64,000 bases of DNA, from positions 3,008,001-3,072,000 of the forward strand of contig OZ240215.1 of assembly GCA_965197585.1 (NCBI GenBank). Direction: 5' to 3'. How positions within the stretch are numbered: the stretch's first letter is position 1; each line of letters starts with the position of its first letter. This stretch comes from Dehalococcoidia bacterium. GTDB lineage: Bacteria > Chloroflexota > Dehalococcoidia > Plut-88900. Positions 13,471 to 64,000 of the stretch are shown piece by piece. The position numbers were made by a program, and so were the translations under genes. Under the pieces are notes generated by a model. That model was not told the DNA's origin and searched no databases. It saw only the letters and a list, made by a program, of their open reading frames with translations.

Positions 13471-13671
13471 ATGCCTAAATCAACGCCCCCAATCCCCCGC
13501 CCATGGTCCAAAGTCCTCCTCTGGGCCGCAGCAATCACGCTGGCCATAGTCCTGGCGACCGCCATCATCAACCCTCTCTTCGATCGCGTCGTCAACTGGG
13601 GCTTGCTCTTCATACTCGCGACGCTGGTCTTCATAGTCCTCGTCACGGCCTTCCGCCGGCGCTGGTTCTAA
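13471..13671 (+). CDS. Small two-TM membrane protein
   Basis: 66 aa, two hydrophobic helices, basic C-terminus; starts 1 nt after the upstream stop. Confidence 0.6.
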   Translation: MPKSTPPIPRPWSKVLLWAAAITLAIVLATAIINPLFDRVVNWGLLFILATLVFIVLVTAFRRRWF

Positions 13672-13719
13672 CCACCCATCCCCAGGTGGGGGGCCGCTCA
13701 CCCTGAGCAAGCTGGAAGT

Positions 13720-14075
13720 GCGCCGTGCTGTAAGTCCGCCTTTGGCGGAGAGCATCGAAGGGTCGACCGGGCGCAGGCCCGCGCCCCTCCAATCCATCAC
13801 ACCCATCCACCCCCACCCCCGGAGGGGAACCTGTCCGCCCAAGGCGGATCATCCCGAGGCTCCGCGAGGGATCTGGGGAGAGGGGTCCAGTCCCCTCTCC
13901 CTCCCTTTACTCCGTCATTCCTGCGGAGGCAGGTCGCAGATGCGCCAAGGCGCGAACCCATCCCTCCTGAAAGCACACCCCCGCCGAGCCGAAATCCATC
14001 CCCAGGGGTGGGGAATTCCGTTCGCCCTGAGCGAAGTCGAAGGGTCTCAAGAACGGAATGGGGTGGTGTCCCCTA
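13720..14075. repeat. Cluster of REP-like palindromic modules
   Basis: tccgcctttggcgga, ccgaggctccgcgagg, ggggagaggggtccagtcccctctcc, ttcctgcggaggcagg and ccctgagcgaagtcgaaggg, each recurring elsewhere in the window. Confidence 0.8.
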
Positions 14076-14097
14076 CCCCAAAAGTGACACGAACCCC

Positions 14098-14127
14098 TTG
14101 ACTCAACATGAACATGCGTACTATATT
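14098..14127 (+). promoter_or_regulatory. Sigma70-type promoter TTGACT-N18-TATATT with a LexA-box-like GAAC-N4-GTAC in the spacer
   Basis: Same spacing in all three copies (27210-27239 -, 54885-54914 -). Confidence 0.7.
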
Positions 14128-14209
14128 ACCTCTCAGGCCCGACTCCCCACGTCGGCCCTAATCAAGGAAAGGTGGAACATCCGCCCCCTGGCGGAACAAA
14201 AGGAGTCCC

Positions 14210-15283
14210 ATGAGTCGCACAAGCCTTCATATGCCCCATCGTTACCGAGCGGTATGTCACCGCCCGGCCACAGGCACGCGCCTCCTCCCCAATCCCTTTC
14301 CTCCCACCATCCTACGCATCAACACCCACTACAAGCGCTGCCCCAGGGCCGAACGCCTCCGCCTCCGCAGCGATCAATCATCGTCCCGCCTCCTGCATGG
14401 AAGGTCCCCGGACAAATCAAGGCACGCCCTGCTGCAGGGCAGCCGCCTCCGCATCAGCGCCCCCGTCGAGGGGCATACTTACGTCGCCGACTTAGTCCTT
14501 GCCGGCGAATCCCAACAGTCGGATGAGCGCCGACTCAAAACCAACGCACCATTTAAGGATTCCACCGTCGTCACAACCGGAGAACTTCCGACTACGAACG
14601 CCGGTCTCGGGTCCCCGCTCCCATCCCTTAGGGTGGTCGAGCACTTCTGGTGGTCGAGACCGCCCCACACCGAGAATTTCTCGGCTCTCCTCCACATCCT
14701 CTCAGAAGTCAGGGGCAAGGATTCCACCGTCGTCACAACCGGACTACTTCCGACTACGAACGCCGGTCTCGGGTCCCCGCTCCCATCCCTTAGGGTGGTC
14801 GAGCACTTCTGGTGGTCGGGACTGCCCCACACCGAGAATTTCTCGGGTCTCGTTCACATCCCCTCAGAAGTTCGGGGCTGTAGCAAAGCCGGCTTCGATG
14901 TGGAACATCCGCTGTCGCGGACAACACCCATCGGTACAGGCGTCGCCGCCTTCCTGCGCAATCGTCCGGGACCTTCCATCCCCTTCCCCTCCCGTTTTCT
15001 CCGTCTTTCCTGCGGAGGCAGGTCGCAGATGCGCCAAGGCGTGAATCCATTCCCGAAAGGGCAGGGGCCCCGCTCCTCGGGGCGTACCCTCCCCTCCCTC
15101 CCCCTTGTCCATTCCCCCAGTAGGGACGACCGGCCGGTCGCCCTGGGTGTGGGCGCCCCGAATAGGGCGTCCACACCTCTCCCCCTCCCTTTTACCATTC
15201 CGAGGCTCCGCGAGGAATCTCGGACTTGCCCGCTCACCCTTCCCCCCCACCTCACCCCACCCTCGAAAGGGGCCGCCTACTAG
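14210..15283 (+). CDS. Hypothetical protein of repeat element copy A (357 aa)
   Basis: AAGGAG RBS and ATG conserved in three copies; frame preserved across indels; no recognisable family. Confidence 0.55.
   Translation: MSRTSLHMPHRYRAVCHRPATGTRLLPNPFPPTILRINTHYKRCPRAERLRLRSDQSSSRLLHGRSPDKSRHALLQGSRLRISAPVEGHTYVADLVLAGESQQSDERRLKTNAPFKDSTVVTTGELPTTNAGLGSPLPSLRVVEHFWWSRPPHTENFSALLHILSEVRGKDSTVVTTGLLPTTNAGLGSPLPSLRVVEHFWWSGLPHTENFSGLVHIPSEVRGCSKAGFDVEHPLSRTTPIGTGVAAFLRNRPGPSIPFPSRFLRLSCGGRSQMRQGVNPFPKGQGPRSSGRTLPSLPLVHSPSRDDRPVALGVGAPNRASTPLPLPFTIPRLREESRTCPLTLPPHLTPPSKGAAY
14555..14878 (+). repeat. In-frame 162-bp tandem duplication inside copy A
   Basis: aaggattccaccgtcgtcacaaccgg starts at 14555 and 14717; near-identical 54-aa units. 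Confidence 0.95.
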
Positions 15284-15505
15284 CCCATACCCTCAAAATG
15301 CCCCATGCCCATCCTGGGGAAACACCGCAGAACAATCAAAGATCACGCCTGAGTCCGCACATCAATCAAACCTCCCCCTTCATGCCTGGCCCGTCGGCCC
15401 AATCAGGGCATCAATCTGCAGCGGCTGTTTCCGTTGTCCCTCCTGTCACACTGGGTTAGAATGCCGGAGCGTGATTCTACACAGTCCCCTGCCCGGAGGT
15501 AGCCA

Positions 15506-16375
15506 TTGCCCTACGACACCCTGCTCTACGAAAAGACCGGCCAAATCGTCAAGGTGACCCTTAACAGACCCGACGTCCTGAACGCCATCAGCGACGAGAT
15601 GGTAAAGGAGATCCGGCTGGCCATTGATGAGGCCGACGCCGACCCCGGAGTCCGCGTCGTCATCCTCACGGGCGCCGGACGCTCCTTCTCCGCCGGCTAT
15701 GACATCAAGCCCCGTGAAGACGGGCGTCCTGCAGCCGACCCGCAGGGCTTTGAAATTGGCGACTATATCAAGCTCTGGTGGGACCGGGACGCCTACGACA
15801 CCGATCAATTCACCCATTTCTGGAAGCTGGGCGTCCCAGTCATCGCTTCCGTCAGGGGCTACTGCTTTGGGGGCGGGTTCTGGTACAGCATGGCCTGCGA
15901 CATCACCATTGCCGCCGACAACGCCGTCTTCGGCCAGCCCGAGGTCCGGCACATTTCCAATACGTCATTCATGCTAGCTGCCCTCTCGAACTGGAAGCAG
16001 GCCCACCGCTGGGCCCTCACCGGTGACCACATGGGTGCCGAGGAGGCTCTCCGCATCGGTGTAGTCACACAGGTAGTCCCCGAGGCTGACCTGGACGCCG
16101 TAACCTGGGCCCTCGCCGAGCGCATAGCCCTCGTCCCCGAGGCCTCGGTCCGAGTCAACAAGGCAGTCACCTGGATGGGCATGGAGGCGATGGGACTCGG
16201 CGCTGCGATGCAGGTCAACGCTGCCCTCTCCAGCGTGGCCCACAGCTCCCACGGTGGCCATCGAGAGGCTCTCTGGGACGCACAGTCCACCGGAGGCCTC
16301 AAAGGCTTCCTGGAGGCCCGGGACGGCCCCTTCCTCCCCGAGCCCTTCGGCCCCAAGTCAAGGAAGAAGAAATGA
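15506..16375 (+). CDS. Enoyl-CoA hydratase/isomerase family protein
   Basis: VTLNRPDVLNAI, GAGRSFSAGYD, GYCFGGG, FGQPE. Confidence 0.93.
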   Translation: MPYDTLLYEKTGQIVKVTLNRPDVLNAISDEMVKEIRLAIDEADADPGVRVVILTGAGRSFSAGYDIKPREDGRPAADPQGFEIGDYIKLWWDRDAYDTDQFTHFWKLGVPVIASVRGYCFGGGFWYSMACDITIAADNAVFGQPEVRHISNTSFMLAALSNWKQAHRWALTGDHMGAEEALRIGVVTQVVPEADLDAVTWALAERIALVPEASVRVNKAVTWMGMEAMGLGAAMQVNAALSSVAHSSHGGHREALWDAQSTGGLKGFLEARDGPFLPEPFGPKSRKKK

Positions 16376-22827: not shown

Positions 22828-25885
<3,058 letters not shown>

Positions 25886-26006
25886 CTACCTGGGACCGGC
25901 CGTCTGGCAGTCGAGAGTTGGGCCTTCGATCGGTCACGGAACCGTGGGCAAAATAAGTACAAGTACAAAACCTCGACCAAAATAATTGTACCACAATGCC
26001 CTGTTT

Positions 26007-27107
26007 TTAGCTACTGTTTATGCCTGTCAAATATGATGGGGTCACGGGGGCCGGCTGCTCCTTTGTTGGATGTTGGGAGAGGGAGTTTTGATTGATGTGC
26101 GGGCGCAGTCGTGGTCTTTGATTGTTTTCGGGGAAATTTGGTTTTTTCCGGGGTGGAGACGCCGGGGATGGGGAGGGGGTTCCTTTCGTGAGTGGGGTGA
26201 GGGGAGAGGGGGGAAGGGTGAGCGGGCAAGTCCGAGATTCCTCGCGGAGCCTCGGAATGGTAAAAGGGAGGGGGAGGGGTGTGGACGCCCCAATCGGGGC
26301 GCCCACACCCTGGGCGACTGGCCGGTCGTCCCCAGTGGGGAAGTGGGCAAGGGGGAGGGAGGTGATGGAAGGTCCCGGACGGTTGCGCAAGAAGGCGTCT
26401 ACGCCTGTGCCGATGCATGTGAGATCGGCGACGGCTCTGCGACAGCCCCTAACTTCTGAGGGGATGTGGACGAGACCCGAGAAATTCTCGGTGTGGGGCA
26501 GTCCCGTCCACCAGAAGTGCTCGACCACCCTAAGGGATGGGAGCGGGGACCCGTGACCGCCGTTCGTAGTCGGGTGTTCTCCGGTTGTGACGACGGTGGA
26601 ATCCCTAAATGGTGCGTTTGTTTTAAGTCGGAGGTTGTCCGACTGTTCGGACTCGCCAGCAAGGTCTAGGCCGGGGGAGTCCGGAGGGGGCGCTATGGCC
26701 CAAGGAGGAGACATGACGCTGTGCTCCAGGGCGTCGCCTGAGGAGGCGAGACGGATGCGCCGGGTGAGTGTAGCGCGCATTTGGCAGTGGCCCTTGGAAA
26801 GGGGGTGCCGTGATTTGTCCGGGGACCTTCCATGCAGGGGGCGGGACGGTGATTGATCGCTGCGAAGGCGTAGGCGTTGGGCCTTTGGGCAGCGCTTGTA
26901 GTGGGAGTTAAGATGGGGAGGACTGGGGAGGAGACCCCGCCTATTCCGCTCTTGAGACCCTTCGACTCCGCTCAGGGCGAGCGGAATGCCCCACCCCAGG
27001 GAATGGTCGAGGCGGGAATGGGGGCTGGGAAGGAGGCGCGTGCCAATGGCCGGGCGGTGGCATACCGCTCGGGTGTGACGGGGCCTATGGAGGCCGGTGC
27101 GACTCAT
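26007..27107 (-). CDS. Hypothetical protein of repeat element copy B (366 aa)
   Basis: Paralogous to 14210-15283 and 54143-54805; conserved RBS and ATG. Confidence 0.55.
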   Translation of the reverse strand: MSRTGLHRPRHTRAVCHRPAIGTRLLPSPHSRLDHSLGWGIPLALSGVEGSQERNRRGLLPSPPHLNSHYKRCPKAQRLRLRSDQSPSRPLHGRSPDKSRHPLSKGHCQMRATLTRRIRLASSGDALEHSVMSPPWAIAPPPDSPGLDLAGESEQSDNLRLKTNAPFRDSTVVTTGEHPTTNGGHGSPLPSLRVVEHFWWTGLPHTENFSGLVHIPSEVRGCRRAVADLTCIGTGVDAFLRNRPGPSITSLPLAHFPTGDDRPVAQGVGAPIGASTPLPLPFTIPRLREESRTCPLTLPPSPLTPLTKGTPSPSPASPPRKKPNFPENNQRPRLRPHINQNSLSQHPTKEQPAPVTPSYLTGINSS

Positions 27108-27372
27108 GGGACTCCTTTAGTTCCGCTCCGCCAAAGGCGGACTTTCAGCTGGGCGGATGTTCCACCTTTCCTTGATTAGGGCCGACGCGGGGTGTCGGGC
27201 CTGGCAGGCAATATAGCACGAATGTTCATGTCGAGTCAAGGGGGTGGTGTCACTTTTGGGGAATCACCCTCACCCCCTCGGGGGGACTCGGGGCAGGCTC
27301 TAGCCCTCTCCCGTCAGAGGGAGAGGGGACTGGACCCCTCTCCCCAGATCCCTCGCGGAGCCTCGGGATGAC
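26075..27372 (-). repeat. Dispersed repeat element, copy B, with upstream REP modules
   Basis: Reverse complement matches copy A over promoter, leader, ORF and tail; about 27317-27370 matches about 13849-13903. Confidence 0.9.
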
Positions 27373-45625: not shown

Positions 45626-46902
45626 TGTACGACCGGGGACATGGGTAACAGTTAGACCGAGGACATAGGTAACACTTTGACTGGGGTTTTGTCGACCCTT
45701 CTGGTGGGGTCATCAAGGAGCCCGATGATGAGGGGCCCGAACTGTATGGACCAGGTTCGTTCGTCTATCTGGACCAGGCCGATGGGTTCGCCCCTGAGGG
45801 ACTCGCTCACGTAGAGCATATCTCCCTTCCACTTGATCTGTCCGTTGCTGCGGACACTACGTACGGTGACACCGGCGTGGTACTCGGGCGAGCTGATACG
45901 TGTGGGATAGGGTCTGATTGAGGGCGTGTACAGCCGGCTTGGTGGATGCCGACCCAGGGCCTCATGTGGCCTCTCGAAGTTGTAGGTGTGCCTGAAGCGT
46001 TCTAGGGCTCGCCGTTGTCGTCTCCAGTTGGCCTTTGGAGGCGAAGCGGCCTCGGCCTTGAGGGTTCGGTGAAGGCGCTCGATGCGTCCATTCTGTTCGG
46101 GGTGACCGGGCTCGATGCGTTCGGGTACGATCCCCAGCTTGACCCACCATGCGGATAGTGGCGAGAGGCTGCCCAGACCCACACCGGCGAAGGGTGGACC
46201 ATTGTCGGTGCGTATGGCCCGAGGGGTGCCGTACTCTCGGAAGGTTCTCTCCAGAGAGCGCTTGACTTCCGGGCCGGCAGGGCAGTCGAGAGGGTCGCAT
46301 ACCAGTAAGTAGCGGGACATGGCGTCCTGGGCTGTCAGGGGGTCTATCCGCATTCCGTCATCCGTGCGGAACCAGCCCTTCAGGTCGATGGCCCACAAGT
46401 CATTGGGGCGCCGGGCATGGGCGAAGGGCTCACCCCAGCGTGTAGCCCTGCGTCGCCGCTTGCGCCGCCTCACCAGACCCACACGGTCCAGTATGGCGCC
46501 TGCAGTGCTGGAGGACGGCCAGGGCACGTAGGGCTCGATGGAATGCAACCAGGCGACGATCTTCTTCGGGCCCCATGTGGGGTGGGTGCGCTTCGCCTCG
46601 ACGATACGCTCAGCCACCTTTGTGGGAGTGGCGTTGGGATGGCTGTGAGGAGCCCGGCTTAGGTCAAGTAGACCGTCATCACCATACGCCTCGTATCGGC
46701 CGATTATCTTGTAGCCGGTCTTGCGGCTGATCCCGGACTGGCGGCACAGCTCAGCGACAGTCTCCTCTCCCGCAGTGTGACGCTCGATAAACTGCAACCG
46801 CTCCGATTCTATGCTCGTGTCTTTCCAAGGCAACACATCTTCCTCCTCTGAGATTGCCTAATACAATCCCACGATGTGTTACCTTTCTGCCCGGTCTGTA
46901 CC
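45626..46902 (-). mobile_element. IS481-family insertion sequence
   Basis: Imperfect IRs tgtacgaccggggacatgggtaaca (45626) and tgttacctttctgcccggtctgtac (46877-46901); internal repeat gaccgaggacataggtaaca at 45655. Confidence 0.88.
45652..46836 (-). CDS. IS481-family DDE transposase
   Basis: MPW...ISRKTGYK HTH, WGPKKI, WAIDLKG, IRTDNG, PEQNGRIER, YNFERPH. Confidence 0.95.
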   Translation of the reverse strand: MLPWKDTSIESERLQFIERHTAGEETVAELCRQSGISRKTGYKIIGRYEAYGDDGLLDLSRAPHSHPNATPTKVAERIVEAKRTHPTWGPKKIVAWLHSIEPYVPWPSSSTAGAILDRVGLVRRRKRRRRATRWGEPFAHARRPNDLWAIDLKGWFRTDDGMRIDPLTAQDAMSRYLLVCDPLDCPAGPEVKRSLERTFREYGTPRAIRTDNGPPFAGVGLGSLSPLSAWWVKLGIVPERIEPGHPEQNGRIERLHRTLKAEAASPPKANWRRQRRALERFRHTYNFERPHEALGRHPPSRLYTPSIRPYPTRISSPEYHAGVTVRSVRSNGQIKWKGDMLYVSESLRGEPIGLVQIDERTWSIQFGPLIIGLLDDPTRRVDKTPVKVLPMSSV

Positions 46903-53020: not shown

Positions 53021-53848
53021 TTAGCTCACGGCGTATTTGTCGCCGCGCTCCTCGACTCGGCCTTCGTTGACGAGTTTGATAAGGTGCACCTTGACCTGGC
53101 CCTCGGCCTCGGAGAGGAGATCCTTGTCGAGTTCAGGGTAGATGGCCTTGACGAGGCTTTCGATGGTGTCCCGGCCCTCGGAGAGGTAGGTGAGGACCTG
53201 TTTCTCCCGCTCCATCCGGTGGTCTAAAAGCTCCTTGATCTTTGCCTGGGGCTGGTTCACCGGAGACCCGTGGCCCGGGTATAGGGCGCTGATATCCAGT
53301 GGCTGAAGCTTGCGCAGGGAGTCGATGTACTTTGCCATGTCCCCGCGGTCTGGGCTGACGGCGGTGGTGCCGGTGCCGAGAATGTGGTCGCCGGTAAAGA
53401 GGGACCGGTTGCTGCGGTTGAGGACGCAGGTGTGGCCGTGGGTGTGGCCCGGGGTGTGAATCAGATCCAGCTCGACGCCCCCTAGGTTGATCACGTCACC
53501 GTCCTCAAAAGCCTCGTCGACGCGGGTGTCCTCAAAAGCCTCGTTGGCCGTGTCGGCGTCATCTCGGTGGATGATGATTTTGGCCCCGGACAGCTGTTTC
53601 AACCGCTCTGCGCCGCCAAGGTGGTCGGGGTGGGGGTGGGTAAGGATGATGTATCGGAAATCGGGGTTGCCGAGCTCTTTGAGCTGGTCGAGCCTGCTGT
53701 TAATGGAATTGTCGTCCCCGTTGCCCGTGTCGATGAGAACGCCTTCGCCCTCGGTGAGGAGGTAGGAGTTGGGCGGGTAGTGTTTGAAGAAGAATGATCC
53801 GTCCTCTATAGGGACGTGGAGGGAGTGAAGGCCGGGGGCTAGCTCCAT
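53021..53848 (-). CDS. MBL-fold metallo-hydrolase (LACTB2-like with winged-helix tail)
   Basis: THPHPDHLGG, TPGHTHGH, FTGDH, PGHG, HLIKL. Confidence 0.93.
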   Translation of the reverse strand: MELAPGLHSLHVPIEDGSFFFKHYPPNSYLLTEGEGVLIDTGNGDDNSINSRLDQLKELGNPDFRYIILTHPHPDHLGGAERLKQLSGAKIIIHRDDADTANEAFEDTRVDEAFEDGDVINLGGVELDLIHTPGHTHGHTCVLNRSNRSLFTGDHILGTGTTAVSPDRGDMAKYIDSLRKLQPLDISALYPGHGSPVNQPQAKIKELLDHRMEREKQVLTYLSEGRDTIESLVKAIYPELDKDLLSEAEGQVKVHLIKLVNEGRVEERGDKYAVS

Positions 53849-53934: not shown

Positions 53935-54935
53935 AGGGAGGTCTCGGTGGGGGCTTTTGATTGACTCAATCAAAAGTTCGTGCCTGTATGATTGTTCTCC
54001 GGGAAAATTGTTCGCCATCTTTCTGGGATGGGGGAGCCGGCGATGGCGATGGAGATTGGATGGGCATGGGAGATTGCGGTTCCTTTCGTGGGTGGTGGTG
54101 GCTTTTGTGGGCGCTTCGATGCGCTCGACCCTTCGACGCTGCTCACGCCACGGCGCATCTTCGACAGGGTGAGCGGGTGAATGGGGGGGCTGGGGAGGGG
54201 ATGGAAGGTCCCGGACGGTTGCGCAGAAAGACGGCGACGCCTGCACCGATGCCTGTGGTTCGCCACAGCGGATGTTCCACATCGGCGACGACTCTGCGAC
54301 AGCCCCGAGCTTCTGGGAGGATGTGGAGGAGACGCGAGGAAATCTCGGTGTGGGGCAGTCTCGACCACCAGAAGTGCCCGACCATTCGGAGATATGGGGG
54401 CGTGGACTCGATACCGTCGCTGGGTGGAATGAGCTCTCCGAGGGCTACGACGGCGGAGTCTCTGGGCACAATGGCCCTGTTGAGCAGCATGACACCGTGC
54501 TCGTGGGCGTCGCCTGAGGGGGCGAGGATGGTGCGCCGGGTAAGTGGGGCGCGCACTTGGCAGGGGCACTTGGAAAGGGCAAGCCAGTTTTTGTCCGGGA
54601 ACCTTCCATAGCCGGTCACTGGGACCGGGCGGAACGATGATTGATCGCTGCGGAGGCGGAGGCGTTCGGCCTTGGGGCAGCGCGTGTAGTGGGTGTTGAG
54701 ATGGGGACAGGGCGAATAGGGATTGGGGAGGAGGCGCGTGCCGGTTGCCGGGCGGTCCCATACCGCACGGGGACGACGGGGCCTATGTAGGCTTATGCAA
54801 CTCATGGGACTCCTTCCGCCAGAGGCGGATGTTCCATATTCCTTATCCTGATTAGGGCCGACATGGGTGTCGGGCCTGCGGGAGAATATAGTACAAAAGT
54901 TTTGATTGGGTCAAGGGGGTGATGTCACAATGGGG
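53935..54935 (-). repeat. Dispersed repeat element, copy C (most diverged, shortest)
   Basis: Same promoter geometry, ggcccgac...gtcggccct hairpin, aaggagtcccatgagt start, ORF blocks and aacaatca tail. Confidence 0.88.
54143..54805 (-). CDS. Hypothetical protein of repeat element copy C (220 aa)
   Basis: Shares RPATGTRLLPNP, HYxRCPxAERLRLRSDQS, HFWWSR, IGxGVAxFLRNRPGPSI. Confidence 0.55.
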   Translation of the reverse strand: MSCISLHRPRRPRAVWDRPATGTRLLPNPYSPCPHLNTHYTRCPKAERLRLRSDQSSFRPVPVTGYGRFPDKNWLALSKCPCQVRAPLTRRTILAPSGDAHEHGVMLLNRAIVPRDSAVVALGELIPPSDGIESTPPYLRMVGHFWWSRLPHTEISSRLLHILPEARGCRRVVADVEHPLWRTTGIGAGVAVFLRNRPGPSIPSPAPPFTRSPCRRCAVA

Positions 54936-55039
54936 AGGGCTGGTGGCACAGGGGAGAGGGATGGATAGGCCGTACTCCGGGGGTCGACTTGTATAATGGA
55001 CGGACGGTCTATGGTCAGGCAAAGTTGGGGGTAACCAAA

Positions 55040-56809
55040 TTGTCTAAAGCGACAAGACAGCTGAATCCCCTGCGTCTCTGCGTCCTTGGCCTGATTCTCC
55101 TGGCCTTCCTCGCCGCCTGCAGTTCCGACGCACCGTCGGCGACTCCTACCTCCGACAGACCTACGGCCACGATCTCACCCACGGCCACCGTCTTGCCTAC
55201 CGCCATCCTCTCGACCACTGCGGCGCCCACACCTCCCAGCACACCACCCGACCTGGACAGGGAAGCGCTGGTTGCCCTCTTCAATGCCACGGATGGTGAA
55301 AACTGGGAGAACAACGAAAACTGGCTGACCGACGCGCCACTCGGCGAATGGCGCGGCGTCACTACTAACGGCAAAGGCCGCGTTGTCGAACTGTATCTCA
55401 AAGGGAACAGGCTGAGTGGAGAGATACCGGCGGAGTTGGGCAACCTCACCAACCTGGAATCTCTGGACCTCGGCGGGAACGGGCTTAGCGGTGGGATACC
55501 GGCAGAGCTGGGCGACCTCACCAACCTGAAGTTCCTGAACCTCAACGGGAACGGGCTTAGCGGTGGGATACCGGCAGAGTTGGGCAGCCTCACCAACCTG
55601 GAAACGCTGAAACTCGGCGATAGCGGATTGAGCGGGGAGATACCGGTGGAGCTGGGCAACCTCGTCAACCTGTGGTGGCTGGACATCAGCGGGAACGGGT
55701 TGAATGGGGAGATACCGGTGGAGTTGGGCAACCTCGTCAACCTGTGGTGGCTGGACATCAGCGGGAACAGGTTGAATGGGGAGATACCGGTGGAGTTGGG
55801 CAACCTCGTCAACCTGGAAGAGTTGCACCTCAGCAATAACCGGTTAAGTGGGGAGATACCGGTAGAGTTAGGCACGCTAGTGCACCTGAGAATACTGTCC
55901 CTCGACGGAAACAATTTGAGCGGTGCAATCCCACCGGAGTTTGGCGACCTCACTAGCCTTGAATCCTTGTCCCTCGATGATAACAAGCTGACTGGAGAGG
56001 TCCCACCGGAGTGGGATAACCTTGCCAGTCTGGTACTACTGACCCTCAACTCGAGCCAGCTAAACGATTGTATATCGGACCTGGTGTACGAAGCGCTTCG
56101 TGATAGGGGCAGCGTCAGGCAATGCGTTGCCGTAGAGACAGGCGAGAACGAAGCGCTGGTCGCCTTGTACAATGCCACTGACGGTCCAAACTGGAATCGC
56201 AATGACAACTGGGGGAGCAGCGCTCCGATCAGCGATTGGTGGGGCGTATCTACTGACCGCGACGGCCGTGTGGCAAGATTAGACCTCTTCCGGAACGGGT
56301 TGAGCGGGGAGTTGCCGCCGGAATTAGGTAGCCTTTCCAACATGAGATCGCTGAGGCTCGTCAGAAATAAATTGAGTGGAGAGATTCCACCCGAGTTGGG
56401 CAATCTGGCTAAGCTGAGAATTTTGCAACTGGAGGGGAACGGGTTGAGCGGAGAGGTACCGCCGGAGTTGGGTGACCTCGCCAACCTTAGAGTGCTGAAA
56501 CTGTCACTGAACGGGTTGAGCGGGAAGATACCGATGGAGTTGGGTGACCTAACCAGTCTGCAGGTAATGCAACTAGGCTATAACCAGTTGAGTGGGGAGA
56601 TTCCGCCGGAGATTGAGAACCTCACCGATCTGCGCTGGCTGCATTTCAGCCGAAATGAGTTAATCGGGGAAGTGCCGGCGGAGTTGGGCAACCTCACCAA
56701 CCTGAGCAGGTTAAACATCAGCCAGAACCAATTGCGCGGGTGCATACCACCCAGTCTGCAATACAAGTTGGATTCAGTCAGTAAGCTAGGTGGTCTGCCT
56801 TACTGCTAA
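55040..56809 (+). CDS. Leucine-rich repeat lipoprotein (plant-type 24-aa LRR, two capped blocks)
   Basis: Lipobox LAAC; two ALVALxNATDG...W.GV...GRV caps; LSGEIPxELGNLxxLxxLxLxxN repeats at a 72-nt period; start moved to TTG 55040 because TATAAT lies at 54992. Confidence 0.92.
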   Translation: MSKATRQLNPLRLCVLGLILLAFLAACSSDAPSATPTSDRPTATISPTATVLPTAILSTTAAPTPPSTPPDLDREALVALFNATDGENWENNENWLTDAPLGEWRGVTTNGKGRVVELYLKGNRLSGEIPAELGNLTNLESLDLGGNGLSGGIPAELGDLTNLKFLNLNGNGLSGGIPAELGSLTNLETLKLGDSGLSGEIPVELGNLVNLWWLDISGNGLNGEIPVELGNLVNLWWLDISGNRLNGEIPVELGNLVNLEELHLSNNRLSGEIPVELGTLVHLRILSLDGNNLSGAIPPEFGDLTSLESLSLDDNKLTGEVPPEWDNLASLVLLTLNSSQLNDCISDLVYEALRDRGSVRQCVAVETGENEALVALYNATDGPNWNRNDNWGSSAPISDWWGVSTDRDGRVARLDLFRNGLSGELPPELGSLSNMRSLRLVRNKLSGEIPPELGNLAKLRILQLEGNGLSGEVPPELGDLANLRVLKLSLNGLSGKIPMELGDLTSLQVMQLGYNQLSGEIPPEIENLTDLRWLHFSRNELIGEVPAELGNLTNLSRLNISQNQLRGCIPPSLQYKLDSVSKLGGLPYC

Positions 56810-58211: not shown

Positions 58212-58221
58212 GAGGCCCGTC

Positions 58222-59679
58222 ATGGTAAGCACTATGCCGTCCCGTTCCCAGGAGATAAGGAGCAAGCTGCGCCACCCGATAATCGACTCGGACGGGCACA
58301 ACCTGGAGCTGAACCCCGCCCTGCTGGACTACGTGCAGGACATCGGCGGTCGGGACGTCAGGGACCGTTTCGGGGAGATGCTGAAGTTCAGCGAGAAGCA
58401 AGAGTGGGTCGAGATGTCCGACGAGGCCCGGCGCTACAACTGGCTCACCGCCCCGGCGTGGTGGGGGATGCCGGCCAAGAACACCTATGACCGGGCCACT
58501 GCGTCGCTGCCTAACCTGTTGCACCGTAGAATGGACGAGCTTGGCATCGACTACGCGGTGATTTACCCGACTTGGCGCCCGGGCCTGATGCGCTTCCAGG
58601 ACGAGAGTGACGACGATATAAGGCGCATCTCCTGCCGGGCCTTGAACGCCTACCACGCCGACATCTACGGCGAGTATTCGGACCGCATGACCCCCGCGGC
58701 CATGATCCCCATGTACACGCCTGAGGAAGCCATCGACGAGCTGGAGTATTCGATTAAGACGCTTAAGCTGAAGGTCCCGGTGATCGCGAGCCTCGTGCGC
58801 CGGACTATACCGAAGCTGGAGGCCGAGGCCCCGGGCATAGCCCATCACGTGCATCGGCTGGACCCCCTGGGCCTGGACAGCGACTACGACTACGATCCGT
58901 TCTGGGCCAAGTGCATGGACCTTGGGACTGCTCCGGCGTGCCACGCCAGCGCGTTCGAATGGGAGGCGCAGGGCTCGATATCCAGCTACGTGTACAACCA
59001 CATCGGCGCGTTCGCAAAGGCCAGCGAGGCGTTCTGCAAGGCCATGTTCATGGGCGGCGTGACCAGGCGGTTCCCCGATCTGAACGTAGCCTTCCTGGAG
59101 GGTGGGGTGGGGTGGGCCTGTTCGTTGTACGCGGGGATCATCTCTCACTGGGAGAAGCGGAACAGCCGCGAGATCTGGAAGCTCGACCCCAACACCGTCG
59201 ACAAGGACATGATGCTCGGTCTGATCGACAAACATGGGCACAAGTCGATGCAGTCTAGGCGGGATGACATCGGGCGGATGATCGACGCAGGAGACGCGAC
59301 TCCCCGCCAGGTCGACGACTGGCACCGCGTGCAGATGGAATCGAAAGAGGAGATGCACGACCTGTTCGTCAAGCCGTTCTACTTCGGGTGCGAAGCTGAT
59401 GACCCGATGAACTCCTGGGCCTTCAACTCGAAGGTGAATCCGATGGGTGCGAAGTTGAAAGCCGTGTTCAGCTCGGATATCGGGCACTGGGACGTGCCGG
59501 ACATGCGGGAGGTGGTGGAGGAGGCCTACGAGATGGTCGAGCACGAATTGATGACCGACTCGGACTTTGAGGACTTCGTATTCACCAACGCCGTCCACCT
59601 GTACGCAGACATGAACCCGGACTTCTTCAAGGGCACGGCGGTGGAGTCGGATGCAGCCAAGGTATTGAATGGGGTGTGA
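58222..59679 (+). CDS. Amidohydrolase family protein (Amidohydro_2), copy 1
   Basis: IIDSDGH, YDPFWAKC, FLEGGVGW, FGCEADD, FSSDIGHWD. Confidence 0.93.
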   Translation: MVSTMPSRSQEIRSKLRHPIIDSDGHNLELNPALLDYVQDIGGRDVRDRFGEMLKFSEKQEWVEMSDEARRYNWLTAPAWWGMPAKNTYDRATASLPNLLHRRMDELGIDYAVIYPTWRPGLMRFQDESDDDIRRISCRALNAYHADIYGEYSDRMTPAAMIPMYTPEEAIDELEYSIKTLKLKVPVIASLVRRTIPKLEAEAPGIAHHVHRLDPLGLDSDYDYDPFWAKCMDLGTAPACHASAFEWEAQGSISSYVYNHIGAFAKASEAFCKAMFMGGVTRRFPDLNVAFLEGGVGWACSLYAGIISHWEKRNSREIWKLDPNTVDKDMMLGLIDKHGHKSMQSRRDDIGRMIDAGDATPRQVDDWHRVQMESKEEMHDLFVKPFYFGCEADDPMNSWAFNSKVNPMGAKLKAVFSSDIGHWDVPDMREVVEEAYEMVEHELMTDSDFEDFVFTNAVHLYADMNPDFFKGTAVESDAAKVLNGV

Positions 59680-59687
59680 GATGGAAT

Positions 59688-59760
59688 ACCCTCACCCTAG
59701 CCCTCTCAAGCCTCGGCGCACCTGCGACCCATCGAGGGAGAGGGGATTGGACCCCTCTCC
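59688..59760. repeat. REP-like palindrome with internal insert
   Basis: ccctcaccctagccctctc...cccatcgagggagaggggattggacccctctcc. Confidence 0.75.
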
Positions 59761-59814
59761 GCCCTGCCTCTGGGTTCCTGCCTCTGTAGTAATGACGGGA
59801 GAAGAGATCGGAGA

Positions 59815-61284
59815 ATGGTAGGCACGAAGGGCTCACGGAGCCAGCAGATACGGAGCAGCCTGAAGCATCCGATAGTCGATGCTGATGGGCATATGCTGGA
59901 ACTTACCCCCGTGCTCTCGGACTACGTGTGCCAGGTGGGCGGCGCCGACGCCCGCGACCTGTTCGATAAGTCGATGGAAGGGGCTGCGGAGACGGGCAAT
60001 GCCGCTCTCGAAAATGGGAAGACGTGGTTCGAGATGACCCTGGAGGAGAAGAAGGAGGAGTGGGCGTCGGCACTGCCATGGTGGGCCATGCCTACCCGCA
60101 GCGCGCTGGACCGGGCCACGGCCACGGTGCCCAGGGTCCTCAACGACCGGATGGACGAGCTGGGTCTCGACTATGCGGTGCTTTACACCACCACGGGGCT
60201 TGCGTTCGACCGGATAGAGCCGCAGGAGCAGAGGCTCATCGTGTGCCGGGCCATAAACGCTTACGCAGCGGACCTTTACGGGCCGTACTCGCGCCGGATG
60301 ACGCCCGCCGCCATCGTGCCCATGGACACGCCGGAGATAGCCATCCGGGAGATGGAATACGCGGTCAACGAGCTAGGGTTGAAGGTGATCATGCTGCCGG
60401 GCCGCGTGGAGCGGCCAATTGCCAAGTACCGGGATGAGTACCCGGGCGCCGAGCGGTACATCCGGAAGATGGACGTGATCGGGTTGGACAGCGACTATGA
60501 CTACGATCCGTTCTGGAAGCGGTGCCAGGAGTTGAAGATGGTGCCCGCGTCCCACGGCAGCGATGCCGGATGGGGCGCCGTGAGCGTATCCAACTACGTT
60601 TTTAGTCACCTTAGCTCGTTTGCATACGCCCACGAGACGTTCTGCAAGGCGCTGTTCCTTGGCGGGGTGACGAAGCGGTTCCCGGGTCTGAACTTCATGT
60701 TCCTGGAAGGTGGTGTGGCCTGGGCATGCAACCTGTACTCGGACCTGATAGGACACTGGGAGAAGCGGAACGGGAAAGAGATTGGGAGGCTGGACCCCCG
60801 GAACTTGGACATCGAACTGGCTATGGAGCTGGCTCGGGAGTACGGCGAGGGCCGAATATTGGCCCACCTGGACGAGGTGCGGGCCAATTTCGCAGCGCCC
60901 CGCCCCACCCCTCCCAACACCGATGATTGGTCTCACGTTCCCATGGAAAGTGTCGAGGACATGCTGGACCTGTTCGTCGAGCCCTTCTACTTCGGATGCG
61001 AAGCCGACGACCCAATGAACGCGTGGGCCTTTGACTCGAAGGTTAATCCGATGGGGGCCAAGTTGAAGGCGGTGTTCAGCTCGGATATCGGGCACTGGGA
61101 CGTGCCGGACATGCTGGGGGTGGTGGAGGAGGCCTACGAGATGCTGGAGCACGACCTTATGACCGAGGAGGACTTCAGGGCCTTCGTGTTCGAAAACGTG
61201 GTGAAGATGTATGGGGAGGTGAACCCGGACTTTTTCAAGGGCACGGTGGTGGAGTCGGAGGCTGCGAGGGTTTTGCATGGTTAG
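59815..61284 (+). CDS. Amidohydrolase family protein, copy 2
   Basis: IVDADGH, YDPFW, FLEGGVAW, FSSDIGHWD. Confidence 0.93.
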   Translation: MVGTKGSRSQQIRSSLKHPIVDADGHMLELTPVLSDYVCQVGGADARDLFDKSMEGAAETGNAALENGKTWFEMTLEEKKEEWASALPWWAMPTRSALDRATATVPRVLNDRMDELGLDYAVLYTTTGLAFDRIEPQEQRLIVCRAINAYAADLYGPYSRRMTPAAIVPMDTPEIAIREMEYAVNELGLKVIMLPGRVERPIAKYRDEYPGAERYIRKMDVIGLDSDYDYDPFWKRCQELKMVPASHGSDAGWGAVSVSNYVFSHLSSFAYAHETFCKALFLGGVTKRFPGLNFMFLEGGVAWACNLYSDLIGHWEKRNGKEIGRLDPRNLDIELAMELAREYGEGRILAHLDEVRANFAAPRPTPPNTDDWSHVPMESVEDMLDLFVEPFYFGCEADDPMNAWAFDSKVNPMGAKLKAVFSSDIGHWDVPDMLGVVEEAYEMLEHDLMTEEDFRAFVFENVVKMYGEVNPDFFKGTVVESEAARVLHG

Positions 61285-62782
61285 CACGAAGCCGTCCCGG
61301 AGCCAGGAGATACGGAGCCGGGTGGGGCACCCGATCATCGACTCCGACGGGCATACGCTGGAGGTCATGCCCCTGGTTGTGGAGTTCGTGGGGGAGGTCG
61401 GTGGAGCGAAGATGAAGAAGCGGTATGAGGAAGGGCTGGCCCAGGCGGTCGGTGTCCACTGGCACGAGATGTCGCAGGAGCAGCGTAACTATGAGTTCGT
61501 TACGGCGCCCGGATGGTGGTTCGAATCGCCCAAGACGCTAGACAGGGTAACTGCGACGATTCCGAAGCTGCTGCACTCCAGGATGGACGAGATCGGGATA
61601 GACTACGCAGTGCTGTACCCAACGCAGGGGCTCTTCTTCGATCGGATACCGGACCCCGAGGTGCGGCAGGCCGGGTGTCGGGGGCTCAACGCTTACCTGG
61701 CCGAGATATACCGACCCTACGCCGACAGGATGACACCGGCGGCTGCTATTCCAATGCAGACACCGGAGATGGCGATAGAGGAGCTGGAGTATGCCGTCGA
61801 CGTGCTTGGGCTGAAGGTTGCGATGATCGAGGGCCGGGCGATGAGGCCGCTGATCAAGGTGGAGAGGGAGTTCCCGGAGCTTGGCAACGTGGGCCGGAGG
61901 ATGGACCTCCTGACCATAGACAGCGACTATGACTACGACCCGTTCTGGGCCAAGTGTGTCGAACTGAACGTGGCCCCTGCTTCCCACGCCGCGAACATGG
62001 GCTGGGGCACCCGCTCAACCTCCAACTACATGTACAACCACCTTAACACCTTCTCCGTGGCCCACGAGTCGCTGGCGAAGGCGCTGTTCCTGGGTGGGGT
62101 GACCAAGCGGTTCCCGGAGCTCAGAGTGGCGTTCCTGGAGGGGGGAGTCGGGTGGGCGTGCAGGCTGTTCTCTGACATCATCGGGCACTGGGAGAAGCGG
62201 GGCGCAGTCGGAATAAGGCAACTCGACCCCCGGCACCTCGACGTTGAAGCGGTGATGGGATTCATTGCGGAGAAGGGTGAGCCGTCCCAAAAGGCTCGGA
62301 TGGAAGAGATACGGAAATTGTACGTAGTCGGTGAGCCGGCGCCGGAAGAAATCGACGACTTTTCCCGGGTCCCGATGGAGCGGCCCGAGGAGATGCTCGA
62401 CCTGTTCGTGGATCGGTTCTTCTTCGGCTGCGAGGCGGATGACCCGATGAACGCGCATGCGTTCAACACGAAGGTCAACCCGATGGGAGCGAAGCTAAGG
62501 GCGATATTCAGCTCGGACATCGGGCACTGGGACGTGTCGGACGTCCGGGAGGTCGTCGAGGAGGCCTACGAGCTGGTGGAGCATGAGTTGATGACCGACC
62601 AGGACTTCCGGGACTTCACCTTCACCAATGCGGCACACTTCTACGGGGACATGAACCCGGACTTTTTCAAGGGGACGGTTGTGGAGGAGGAGGTGGGGAG
62701 GGAGTTGGGGGGTGGGGGGATGTCCCCACCACCTCTGGATTCCTGCGAAAATAGGAATGATGCTAGTAGAGAATTATGTTGA
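61277..62782 (+). CDS. Amidohydrolase family protein, copy 3
   Basis: IIDSDGH, YDPFWAKC, FLEGGVGW, FSSDIGHWD; C-terminus runs into REP-like sequence. Confidence 0.93.
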   Translation: MVSTKPSRSQEIRSRVGHPIIDSDGHTLEVMPLVVEFVGEVGGAKMKKRYEEGLAQAVGVHWHEMSQEQRNYEFVTAPGWWFESPKTLDRVTATIPKLLHSRMDEIGIDYAVLYPTQGLFFDRIPDPEVRQAGCRGLNAYLAEIYRPYADRMTPAAAIPMQTPEMAIEELEYAVDVLGLKVAMIEGRAMRPLIKVEREFPELGNVGRRMDLLTIDSDYDYDPFWAKCVELNVAPASHAANMGWGTRSTSNYMYNHLNTFSVAHESLAKALFLGGVTKRFPELRVAFLEGGVGWACRLFSDIIGHWEKRGAVGIRQLDPRHLDVEAVMGFIAEKGEPSQKARMEEIRKLYVVGEPAPEEIDDFSRVPMERPEEMLDLFVDRFFFGCEADDPMNAHAFNTKVNPMGAKLRAIFSSDIGHWDVSDVREVVEEAYELVEHELMTDQDFRDFTFTNAAHFYGDMNPDFFKGTVVEEEVGRELGGGGMSPPPLDSCENRNDASRELC

Positions 62783-63005
62783 TCGTAATGGTGGCGGTGC
62801 TCACGCGCATGTCATCTGAGGGCACTTGGGTAAGCCTCGGCTTTCCGCACTGGTCGGCTTTCCATGGATGCGTTTATACCGATCTGCCCCCCACAGTCCT
62901 AGGCGGTTAATGCCAAGTTGTGACCTCACTAGTGTGTTGCTATGATGTGGCCTGTATTTCCTGCCAACTCGGTGAGGACTAGAAAAGAGAGTGAAGGAGC
63001 GAGTT

Positions 63006-63281
63006 ATGGTGGCAGAGATTCGTTATCTCACCTTGGACGAGAAGATGAATGGGATATTGGAGGAGCGCATCTTTAAGTATGAAGATCGCTACGAAATGTC
63101 CTCCTGTGAGATGGCTAAGGCTCTGTCAAACGGCACTGAGAGAGAGACGGCGGAGAAGTTGAGGTGGATGTTCGACTATCACGCTCTGGAATACATCCGA
63201 AAACAGATCCACACGAGCGGAACAATTGGGATAACTACAAGTTCATCCATGAGAAGCGGCTTGCCGAACACCCATTTGTAG
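63006..63281 (+). CDS. Putative antitoxin (TumA-like)
   Basis: AAGGAG RBS; RIFKYEDRYEMSS...W pattern. Confidence 0.55.
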   Translation: MVAEIRYLTLDEKMNGILEERIFKYEDRYEMSSCEMAKALSNGTERETAEKLRWMFDYHALEYIRKQIHTSGTIGITTSSSMRSGLPNTHL

Positions 63282-63697
63282 ACCCGTGCAAGCCCCATAC
63301 TCTCCAGTACTACGAGAGTAGCCACAACACTACCGTTGTCGAAGGGTACGTGTTCTGTAAACAGGGTGTCGTCCTCGAAGTAGAGAAAAGGCTTGAAAAG
63401 ACAATTGTGGCGGGCAGGGCACAAGTCCGCGGATTGCAATATCGTTACGTAGCGTGGATTCCGCGGGACTCGTCACCCAGAGGGACACCAATTTTACGCT
63501 ATCACAACATTCACGAACGTGACGATGACTATCATCACCGGGTGTTTAATCCCCAAACGGGCGAGCAAATTCTCTACGAGAAGCTGGAACGGTCCCAGTT
63601 CCCCGTGATGAGTGACATCCTCAATGAAATAGCAGTCATTCTAGAATGCTATCCGGTAGAGCATGTTCTATGCTCCGATAGTGTGCCCGATCATTAA
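63164..63697 (+). CDS. Putative toxin (TumE/DUF6516-like); start uncertain
   Basis: YRYVAW...PILRYHNIH...HHR motif; overlaps the upstream small gene. Confidence 0.55.
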   Translation: MDVRLSRSGIHPKTDPHERNNWDNYKFIHEKRLAEHPFVDPCKPHTLQYYESSHNTTVVEGYVFCKQGVVLEVEKRLEKTIVAGRAQVRGLQYRYVAWIPRDSSPRGTPILRYHNIHERDDDYHHRVFNPQTGEQILYEKLERSQFPVMSDILNEIAVILECYPVEHVLCSDSVPDH

Positions 63698-63860
63698 AGA
63701 AATCCGCTCCTCAAAGTCTCTCCCCTGCCCCCTTGCCACAGCCTCACTTTGAACCGATATTAGTCGATTTAGATCCATGCTTTATAATGCAAAATAACCT
63801 TTAGCAGGATTGGATTCGCCCCTACGCGGAACGGGGACAAAAGGCCAGGAGGAACGGACA

Positions 63861-64000
63861 ATGGTAACTACTAGATCTTCCCGGAGCCAGGAGATACGGA
63901 GCAAGGTGGGCCACCCGATAATCGACTCGGATGGGCACACCCTGGAGCTGTCGCCCGTGCTCTCGGACTACGTATATGAGCAGGGCGGCGCCGACGCCCG
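63861..64000 (+). CDS. Amidohydrolase family protein, copy 4 (truncated by window edge)
   Basis: AGGAGG RBS; MVTTRSSRSQEIRSKVGHPIIDSDGHTLEL. Confidence 0.9.
   Translation, partial: MVTTRSSRSQEIRSKVGHPIIDSDGHTLELSPVLSDYVYEQGGADA

Follow-up and report, generated by a model that had tools for sequence, protein, structure and literature searches.

Dispersed Promoter-Bearing Repeats in the Window

The 64,000-nucleotide stretch described here (the window; positions 3,008,001 to 3,072,000 of contig OZ240215.1) belongs to the genome of a Dehalococcoidia bacterium (G000; a single contig of 3.43 Mb, 92% complete) and holds three dispersed homologous repeats, copy A at 14078-15380 (+), copy B at 26075-27261 (-), and copy C at 53935-54935 (-), whose shared blocks are 76-92% identical. 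Each is a promoter-bearing paralogue, with internal deletions, of the first part of a phage-derived packaging operon that consists of a promoter, a terS-like open reading frame (ORF1), a 69-amino acid (aa) ORF2, and terL, and the ORF that it carries is, by homology, an in-frame remnant of a gene for a large terminase-like (TerL-like) protein, enclosed by a long-range stem of 17-20 bp. Throughout the ORF-bearing family to which they belong, termed Fam1, the frame is protected from stop codons and lasting frameshifts while the peptide evolves near-neutrally.

A repeat search within the window aligned copies A and B over blocks of 230 nt (90% identity), 181 nt (92%), and 170 nt (91%), copies A and C over 233 nt (83%), and copies B and C over 183 nt (77%) and 122 nt (81%). 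Common to all three are a TTGACY-N18-TATATT promoter, two leader hairpins, AAGGAGTCCCATGAGT, the ORF, and a CA-rich tail; each copy keeps a sigma-70-type promoter with ~25 nt of upstream sequence, a hairpin leader, and a strong Shine-Dalgarno/ATG start. The promoter of copy A, TTGACT-18-TATATT at 14098-14127, matches 10 of the 12 consensus letters, and the copy A region contains two promoter-like sites against 0.3 expected from shuffles. Hairpin 1 (AGGCCCGAC..GTCGGCCCT) lies at 14135-14159 in A, 27178-27202 in B, and 54854-54877 in C, and the CCGCC..GGCGG hairpin and the ACAATCA..TCAATCAAA tail were likewise located in each copy. Hairpin 2 of copy B carries a REP-like insert, and a REP-like insert of copy B at 26940-27006 matches 13996-14062. 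The first-pass annotation of this DNA had reported three copies with a promoter, hairpins, start region, tail, and ORFs of 220-366 codons, and all were recovered in place; the repeat search also established that the 162-bp duplication it described in copy A and the REP-like insert in copy B are real. The features of the three copies are as follows.

14078..14127 (+): copy A 5' boundary box and promoter, GTGACACGAACCCCTTGACT at 14084-14103 and -10 TATATT at 14122-14127
14135..14195 (+): copy A leader, hairpin 1 at 14135-14159 and hairpin 2 (CATCCGCC..GGCGGA) at 14178-14195
14200..14219 (+): copy A Shine-Dalgarno AAGGAG and ATG (14210), within the near-invariant 17-mer GAGTCCCATGAGTCGCA
14210..15283 (+): copy A ORF, 357 codons, in the ancestral terL frame
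14309..15001 (+): copy A terL-homologous segment, of which 14309-14713 corresponds to TerL residues 194-336 (E 1.5e-31)
14717..15001 (+): copy A duplicated module, corresponding to TerL residues 284-371 (E 9.2e-21)
14397..14413 (+): copy A 5' arm of a long-range stem, ATGGAAGGTCCCCGGAC
14964..14979 (+): copy A 3' arm of the long-range stem, GTCCGGGACCTTCCAT
14555..14878 (+): copy A tandem duplication of a 162-nt module, 14555-14716 and 14717-14878, 94% identical (repeat search)
14975..15053 (+): REP-like small repeat inserted in the 3' part of copy A, with a second occurrence at 13886-13964
15332..15370 (+): copy A tail, ACAATCAA..TCAATCAAA
27210..27253 (-): copy B promoter module
27098..27202 (-): copy B leader, hairpin 1 at 27178-27202, hairpin 2 at 27127-27159, Shine-Dalgarno and ATG at 27098-27117
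26007..27107 (-): copy B ORF, 366 codons, whose terL-homologous part (26361-26675) corresponds to TerL residues 261-365
26817-26833 and 26365-26380 (-): copy B stem arms
26087..26125 (-): copy B tail
54885..54928 (-): copy C promoter module
54796..54877 (-): copy C leader, hairpin 1 at 54854-54877, hairpin 2 at 54815-54831, Shine-Dalgarno and ATG at 54796-54815
54143..54805 (-): copy C ORF, 220 codons, whose terL-homologous part (54173-54703) corresponds to TerL residues 196-373
54593-54609 and 54201-54216 (-): copy C stem arms
53956..53995 (-): copy C tail, with a 10-bp hairpin in the predicted fold

That the tail marks the 3' end of the element is doubtful; it is perhaps a separate motif, because the ACAATCAA..TCAATCAA motif also occurs alone and in arrays elsewhere. 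Arrays of TCAATCAA boxes with a spacing of ~21 nt lie outside the window at 1219521-1219700, 1546636-1546800, and 3081800 of the genome, and paired boxes stand directly 5' of the Shine-Dalgarno sequence at other genes. These boxes may be a regulatory motif in their own right and not an end of the element.

Identity of the ORF

The first-pass annotation had called the ORF an orphan in which no known domain is visible. An exhaustive HMMER search of 1.8 billion representatives with the ORF of copy B returned 139 cluster representatives at E-values up to 1e-3, most of them the same kind of ORF and ~12 of them ordinary-looking TerL-like proteins of 500-630 aa that aligned at their residues ~285-390 (E 1e-12 to 1e-4). 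Two full-length homologues are present in the genome itself, at 1117829-1119217 (-) and 2872277-2873659 (-), behind the same promoter module. The full-length protein has 462 aa and was modeled by AlphaFold2 with a predicted local distance difference test score (pLDDT) of 88, and the top Foldseek matches of this model are all large terminases (HK97 at 9e-18, D6E, T4 gp17, and Sf6), with both the ATPase and the nuclease domains covered. At the sequence level, the PHROG terminase large subunit family matched the full-length protein weakly (7e-6) and a sequence search of the PDB with it gave no matches; the fold search alone succeeded.

The Fam1 ORFs align in frame to residues ~193-375 of TerL with 44-65% identity depending on the copy, and the window copies match the genome's own TerL over residues 194-373 with E-values of 1e-31 to 4e-33. 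The ORF is therefore no orphan: it aligns in its original frame to a TerL-like protein, and the homology, remote as it is to known terminases, is significant. Residues ~193-375 span the linker together with the initial half of the RNase-H-like nuclease domain. The packaging ATPase domain is not found in the Fam1 ORFs, whose alignments begin at residue ~193 of 462, and the ARQGGKNE and DESQD stretches of the full-length protein, which by eye we take to be Walker A and Walker B, have no counterpart in them; the end of the nuclease domain (the C-terminal ~90 residues with the GHDDF segment) is likewise absent, as the alignments stop at residue ~375. Two blocks, DSTVVT.GE and LPSLRVVEH.WW, are retained. 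Pfam assigned no family to ORFs A and B, and to ORF C only DUF883_C at E 0.092 and 12.9 bits against a cut-off of 27. A structure search starting from copy C had been proposed earlier; for ORF C, AlphaFold2 with a 30-row alignment gave an essentially unfolded model, with a pLDDT of 50, a predicted template modeling score (pTM) of 0.21, and two strands only. An origin of the Fam1 N-terminus from the start of the terS-like ORF1 was considered on a weak visual impression and set aside, BLAST finding no similarity.

The Parent Packaging Operon

The full-length unit consists of the promoter, ORF1 (132 aa, terS-like), ORF2 (69 aa, hydrophobic), and the 462-aa TerL, and the two units of this genome share ~2.3 kb at 80% identity. 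The ratio of non-synonymous to synonymous substitution rates (dN/dS) between their terL genes is 0.27, which indicates purifying selection. A TerL-like gene occurs in 41 of 61 relatives from the class, mostly once per genome, and species of the window's genus have one to four full copies together with many partial ones.

At four outgroup loci inspected, terL follows a homologue of ORF1 in all four and a homologue of ORF2 in three; Cys-rich and portal-like proteins are encoded 3' of terL in three, and a major-head-like protein is in view in two. PHROGs matches at one of these loci identify the portal (6e-32) and the major head protein (3e-77), and weakly link the Cys-rich protein to a late transcriptional activator (1.5e-4). 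Homologues of the Cys-rich, portal, and major head proteins also lie downstream of the copy at 2.87 Mb, which is for this reason taken as the syntenic one, and a three-gene duplicate lies at 1.12 Mb. It is thus the promoter of a conserved phage-derived head-packaging operon that the dispersed elements carry.

The 69-aa ORF2 lies at 1119217-1119423 (-) and is also present in the 2.87-Mb copy, in each case between the terS-like ORF and terL. Its stop codon overlaps the GTG start of terL (GTGA), it encodes a hydrophobic stretch, its dN/dS is 0.24, and it has homologues in three outgroup genera.

Copy Number and Spread

The first-pass annotation had surmised that three copies in one window of a multicopy unit with its own promoter implied many more genome-wide, and this was borne out. 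Fam1, recognized by the start motif GAGTCCCATGAGTCGCA with at most one mismatch, has 14 copies in the genome. At least 43-44 occurrences of the promoter module GTGACAC..CCCCTTGAC-N-TGTACTATATT were counted, standing before leaders of several different kinds. Fam2 is the largest group, its roughly 57 copies having a AAGGAGGAACCA..GAGGACTCAACG leader that lacks a start codon, which brings the total to ~70 places. The segment common to all families is the promoter only. An nhmmer profile of a conserved 270-nt module gave 32 matches in the genome, in Fam1 and Fam2 loci alike, and it is mainly these matches that support a probable derivation of Fam2 from the terL unit, as nucleotide similarity between Fam2 and the full-length unit is confined to the promoter and short pieces of terL. 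A minimal unit outside the window, at 2522238 (+), has the promoter module, a TCAATCAA-type tail within ~100 nt, and a gene at +284, and is without a terL remnant.

The family is restricted to one genus. Copy A has DNA matches in all eight other species of the genus, none in three other genera of the same family, and weak ones only in three class-level genomes. The start motif (at most one mismatch) occurs 7-17 times per species in the nine species, 98 times in total, and its reversed control not once. When the motif was scanned against bacteria and archaea with one genome per species, 34 of the 80 matches listed fell in eight assemblies labeled 'MAG: Dehalococcoidia bacterium', and the remaining records listed had a single match each, about the chance level for a 17-mer.

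An Open Frame Without Peptide Constraint

Intact ORFs of 220-455 codons start from the conserved ATG in 13 of the 14 Fam1 copies of the genome, the remaining copy stopping after 46 codons. Among 27 copies sampled from the other eight species, 25 are open for at least 190 codons, and the other two for 83 and 99. Over the same spans, the other two forward frames contain 1-17 stops each, and of the dinucleotide shuffles run for each copy only 0-3% lack a stop. In an alignment of 22 core copies, frame 0 has no stops, and frames 1 and 2 have 171 and 115, at 75 and 67 alignment positions, respectively; 49 stops in frame 1 and 49 in frame 2 are seen in one copy only. These 22 copies were picked as intact, and the fair overall figure is for this reason 38 of 41 frames intact across nine species. 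The stop test is a comparison between frames; a neutral simulation based on the consensus was discarded, the gapped consensus itself containing two frame-0 stops. Subfamilies whose ORF bodies are no longer alignable also remain open, for 224-289 codons, and Fam2, of similar composition, has no consistently open frame. These counts lie far beyond chance expectation and fit the earlier suggestion that the element must stay translatable.

Selection on the peptide is much harder to find. The dN/dS of Fam1 is 0.80, compared with 0.97 and 0.88 for the same alignments read in the wrong frames, and substitution rates are flat across codon positions (0.137, 0.148, and 0.136), so that the Fam1 ORFs show neither a dN/dS well below 1 nor an excess of third-position changes. 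Their codon-usage score is ~0, compared with ~0.3 for neighboring genes, and the peptides are rich in R, P, S, H, and C. The first-pass annotation had expected a non-coding sequence to combine a dN/dS near 1 with common frameshifts and stops; here the dN/dS is near 1, yet stops and frameshifts are rare. Its statement that the frame is kept through indels holds in one sense, as 32127 of 33298 aligned columns (96%) between copies of the genome are in the same codon phase, and is less clear in another, as only 71 of 255 gaps in pairwise high-scoring segment pairs are divisible by three, which is no enrichment. Either small frame-shifting gaps are compensated nearby or the gap figure reflects alignment noise.

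Genomic Position, Neighboring Genes, and Mobility

The copies lie in intergenic DNA, mostly just 5' of unrelated host genes and in the same direction. In counts that use a heuristic gene set and not an annotation, 56 of 71 elements point the same way as the gene that follows them, compared with 0.49 for the share of nearby genes lying on the element's strand. Twenty downstream proteins that were scanned are ordinary metabolic or transport proteins; three are Amidohydro_2 members and two MFS members, the Pfam families of the others differ, and few are paralogous. Each copy in the window is followed by a co-oriented gene, named by reading its translation.

15506..16375 (+): enoyl-CoA-hydratase-like gene, downstream of copy A
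23432..25864 (-): gyrB, downstream of copy B
53021..53848 (-): metallo-beta-lactamase-fold gene, downstream of copy C

No terminator-like site was found on the + strand between copy A and its gene. An element lies upstream of gyrB in five of five other species examined, from different subfamilies. In the window (25865-26074) and in the five species, the promoter region of gyrB itself consists of TTGACAGGCAC.. followed by TGTGGTACAAT and stands downstream of whichever element is present, preceded by three to four TCAATCAA boxes in two species. The orthologue of the gene after copy A has no element upstream in three of five species (G006, G007, and G008), a Fam2 motif in G001, and nothing recognizable in G004, and the orthologue of the gene after copy C has none in five of five. 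The copies thus behave as a duplicative element, present or absent at orthologous sites, in keeping with the first-pass proposal of a non-autonomous mobile element.

Inspection by eye of the 5' boundary (CCCCAAAA|GTGACAC) and of the tail revealed neither terminal inverted repeats nor target duplications, the minimum length in the repeat search being 40, and the comparison of orthologous sites yielded no empty site with clean junctions. An IS200/IS605-type or retro-element origin had been raised by the strand bias and the TTGAT-like tail, and was dropped because Y1 transposase, TnpB, and reverse transcriptase have no match in this 92%-complete genome. Genes for rve and DDE_Tnp_1 transposases are abundant. 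The rve-type insertion sequence (IS) was considered as the mobilizer and rejected, its 20 copies sitting in REP-like repeats and one of the 20 lying within 110 nt of an element promoter.

A Rho homologue is encoded in the genome. Two RNA-library runs labeled sponge metagenome contain 7-8% of the sampled words, and the contigs that they yield, 73-187 nt long at depth 2-8, map to gyrB and to the core of copy B. Because these are contigs, the element is multicopy, and carry-over of DNA is possible, they speak neither for transcription nor against it, and stretches that they leave uncovered carry no information.

Proposed Role of the Open Frame

The interpretation that we favor, with modest confidence, is that the Fam1 copies are non-autonomous, promoter-carrying, transcribed and translated terL remnants selected for ribosome transit. 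In this model, the unit's own promoter would give rise to a folded, C-rich RNA, whose translation would begin at the conserved ATG, with selection acting on the passage of ribosomes and not on their product. As long as translation is uninterrupted, the long C-rich transcript would be protected against Rho-dependent termination or decay, and transcription that starts at the strong promoter could continue toward the neighboring gene. The family probably spread by DNA-level copying within the genus.

Several observations weigh against this interpretation. Fam2 occupies the same kind of position without any ORF, which means that neither persistence nor, presumably, read-through requires translation. 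The end of the ORF is variable, as copy C stops ahead of the ancestral end motif and copy B ~170 nt beyond it, and the lack of enrichment for gaps divisible by three also counts against it. The next gene is in the opposite orientation for 15 of the 71 elements, including 3 of 14 in Fam1; the gene after copy A has its own promoter-like site at 15434-15462, and a conserved promoter belonging to gyrB stands between that gene and the element. The RNA data consist of contigs, in which neither a transcript nor its ends nor read-through can be seen, and the searches for Y1 transposase, TnpB, and reverse transcriptase did not identify a mobilizing enzyme.

Alternative Explanations

The alternative that survives best, unlikely as we hold it to be, is that the copies are cis-acting sites for the packaging machinery, with TerL/TerS recognizing the stem-bounded terL segment and/or the leader for mobilization or the start of packaging, and with the ORF as a passenger. 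It draws on the long-range stem, in which ATGGAAGGTCCCCGGAC pairs with GTCCGGGACCTTCCAT in the window copies over 17-20 bp and encloses the terL remnant. In 45 collected Fam1 copies the stem closes a domain of 389-834 nt, and variants keep the pairing through compensatory changes. The same arms lie 384 nt apart inside full-length terL. For all 10 genes tested from the genus, the energy of the duplex is -24 to -40 kcal/mol, and controls have means of -8 to -10; in the terL of four of four outgroup genera, which are also without dispersed copies, the arms pair no better than controls. That the full-length genes are under purifying selection, that the genome has no Y1 transposase, TnpB, or reverse transcriptase, and that its abundant rve-type IS targets REP-like repeats instead, with one of 20 copies adjoining a promoter, all accord with such a role. 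It leaves the frame-specific exclusion of stops unexplained, however, and most of terS, in which pac sites usually lie, is deleted in Fam1; furthermore, only the promoter is common to all families, and the link between stem and proliferation rests on a single evolutionary event. In a bolder and quite unlikely model, the terminase itself drives the family: terL gained the 20-bp stem within the genus, and the TerL nuclease, with or without the terS-like protein, would recognize stem-bounded terL segments that carry the operon promoter and would either copy them to new sites or package from ~70 sites.

It is also quite unlikely that the Fam1 ORFs encode functional, fast-evolving proteins, either truncated and TerL-nuclease-like or disordered and basic, which might act for example as packaging regulators or in phage conflict. 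The retention of start codon, Shine-Dalgarno sequence, and frame in 38 of 41 copies from nine species would be expected of such proteins, as would the two conserved blocks; gene callers elsewhere have predicted proteins of this kind (the 139 cluster representatives), and a dN/dS of 0.8 could mix purifying with diversifying selection. Set against this, the frame-0 dN/dS is barely under those of the two wrong frames and the codon-position rates are flat, the R/P/S/H/C-rich peptides have a codon score of ~0, no Pfam family, and an essentially unfolded model, they lack the ATPase domain and the C-terminal part of the nuclease, and the ORF tolerates REP-like inserts and module duplications. The fast-evolving modular protein family offered as one option in the first-pass annotation is thus hard to reconcile with the dN/dS values, the non-genic codon usage, and the pLDDT of 50.

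Less probable again is that the element body functions in its own right as a large structured non-coding RNA, the open frame being secondary. In a 39-sequence alignment of the 270-nt module, a hand-drawn structure pairs 93.3% of cells, compared with 38-44% when the partners are slid; changes on both sides occur at 11 pairs in 47 cells, compared with 3-7 pairs in 6-21 cells for slid partners, and many G-U pairs fit the sense strand only. The sense RNA of copy C also folds better than all 20 shuffles (z -3.2; antisense z +0.8), and the long-range stem is conserved. The module structure nevertheless amounts to moderate evidence, because it was derived from the same sequences, which inflates the pairing figures, and because the highly conserved module is coding-derived; the count of both-side-changed pairs was reached by 25 of 500 shuffles. 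Rfam returned no matches in the whole window at gathering thresholds, and in E-value mode over 13600-15600 only matches of E 0.18-10, well under the gathering scores of the families concerned, and the absence of stops from one frame would still need translation.

Neutrally decaying pseudogene fragments from segmental duplication, with the frame open through C-richness and youth, are the least probable explanation and already disfavored, since a dN/dS near 1, a peptide predicted to be unfolded, a genome with many IS and REP-like repeats, as weak selection would lead one to expect, and the decay exemplified by Fam2 are outweighed by 171 and 115 stops in the other frames against none in frame 0 of the same spans, by shuffles that are stop-free in 0-3% of trials only, by non-alignable subfamilies open for 224-289 codons, and by 25 of 27 copies open in eight other species.

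Relation to Known Systems

Families of MITE-like elements (MITEs being miniature transposable elements with inverted repeats) comprise many internally deleted copies beside few full-length coding ones. The present elements resemble them in having full-length relatives (two in this genome, one to four per species) and intergenic copies that are present or absent between species. They differ in that the inverted repeat lies inside the element, neither terminal inverted repeats nor target duplications are seen by eye at its ends, the parent encodes a terminase and not a known transposase, a promoter is carried, and one subfamily keeps an ORF. With phage TerL and domesticated head-packaging clusters such as gene transfer agents, the parent shares the TerL fold and the order terS-like gene, small ORF, terL, Cys-rich, portal, and major head genes; the window copies, unlike these clusters, hold TerL residues ~193-375 only and lie outside any particle gene cluster.

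In translated leaders and upstream ORFs, it is translation and not its product that matters, through transcription-translation coupling and Rho-dependent polarity. The Fam1 ORFs share with them an uninterrupted frame, little peptide constraint, a C-rich transcript, the presence of Rho, and a co-oriented downstream gene, but are much longer multicopy gene remnants (220-455 codons) for which polarity is proposed. The stem-closed domain of 0.4-0.8 kb with many helices recalls OLE, GOLLD, ROOL, and HEARO, the last also in being multicopy, although the present sequence has no Rfam match, is coding-derived, and would be translated.

A close precedent is offered by putative mobile promoters, or promoter reuse (Nijveen, Matus-Garcia and van Passel, 2012, PMC3575422), in which non-homologous genes of one genome or of related ones are preceded by promoter-containing upstream regions of high similarity. 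Here too, at least 43 promoter copies stand before unrelated metabolic and transport genes, and dispersed promoter-bearing repeats and non-autonomous derivatives are a kind already known (PMC3575422). In contrast to mobile promoters as characterized there, the promoter in this genus travels with a 0.7-1.3 kb terL remnant, its parent operon is identifiable, a long-range stem is present, one subfamily has an open, putatively translated frame, and the spread is limited to one genus. At the level of literature listings and abstracts, no description was found of terminase-derived dispersed repeats or of the Dehalococcoidia packaging cluster; the features for which no description was found, and which would be new, are the terminase-operon parent, the frame-open but peptide-free signature with its ORF-less control, and the genus-specific stem in terL.

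Other Repeats and Features of the Window

REP-like small repeats (core ..ATTCCGAGGCTCCGCGAGGAAT..) litter the intergenic DNA and also occur inside the elements. Pairs in the window include 13849-13903 with 27317-27371 (100% complementary), 13886-13964 with 14975-15053, and 13996-14062 with 26940-27006. The rve-type IS is ~1.06 kb long, has 20 copies genome-wide, and is inserted precisely within the REP-like repeat (...CTCGGAAT|IS|GGAATGAC...); an rve-domain (integrase-core) match at 46099-46413 (-) in the window (genome 3054099-3054413), in a 401-codon frame, marks a transposase gene. At 54989-56809 (+), divergent from copy C, lies a gene for a 606-aa leucine-rich-repeat protein with twelve 72-nt-periodic units, and 58213-64000 contains paralogous units in tandem, three to four in number and each ~1.43-1.61 kb long, with 63-79% identity and a DSDYDYDPFW-coding stretch in common, which looks like a tandem gene-family expansion.

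The GC skew of the genome, computed in 50-kb bins, is very strong and asymmetric, with + strand values of -0.07 to -0.19 over ~1.1-2.6 Mb and a cumulative skew that does not close. The frequency of C at third codon positions is 0.35-0.59 in four genes checked, and the heuristic genes are evenly split between the strands, so that their orientation is no obvious cause of the skew. No tie could be made between element orientation and replication or GC skew.

Significance

The supposed orphan ORF is traceable to a packaging operon that seeded ~70 promoter-bearing remnants before ordinary genes in one symbiont-like genus, and such ORFs should not be annotated as hypothetical proteins of unknown origin. 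As a consequence of this seeding, gyrB and many metabolic and transport genes may be wired to a phage-type promoter. Fam1 offers an unusually clean natural case of selection on translation itself, with an ORF-less sister family as a built-in control, and ideas about transcription-translation coupling and Rho-dependent polarity become directly testable in it. That the stem arose in terL nowhere but in the genus where the family proliferated may point to a connection between terminase biology and repeat spread, one with no description among the literature listings and abstracts searched. If true, copying mobilized by a terminase would be a route of transposition not described before, and ~70 dispersed sites of packaging initiation would let a domesticated phage-like particle package DNA from all round the chromosome.

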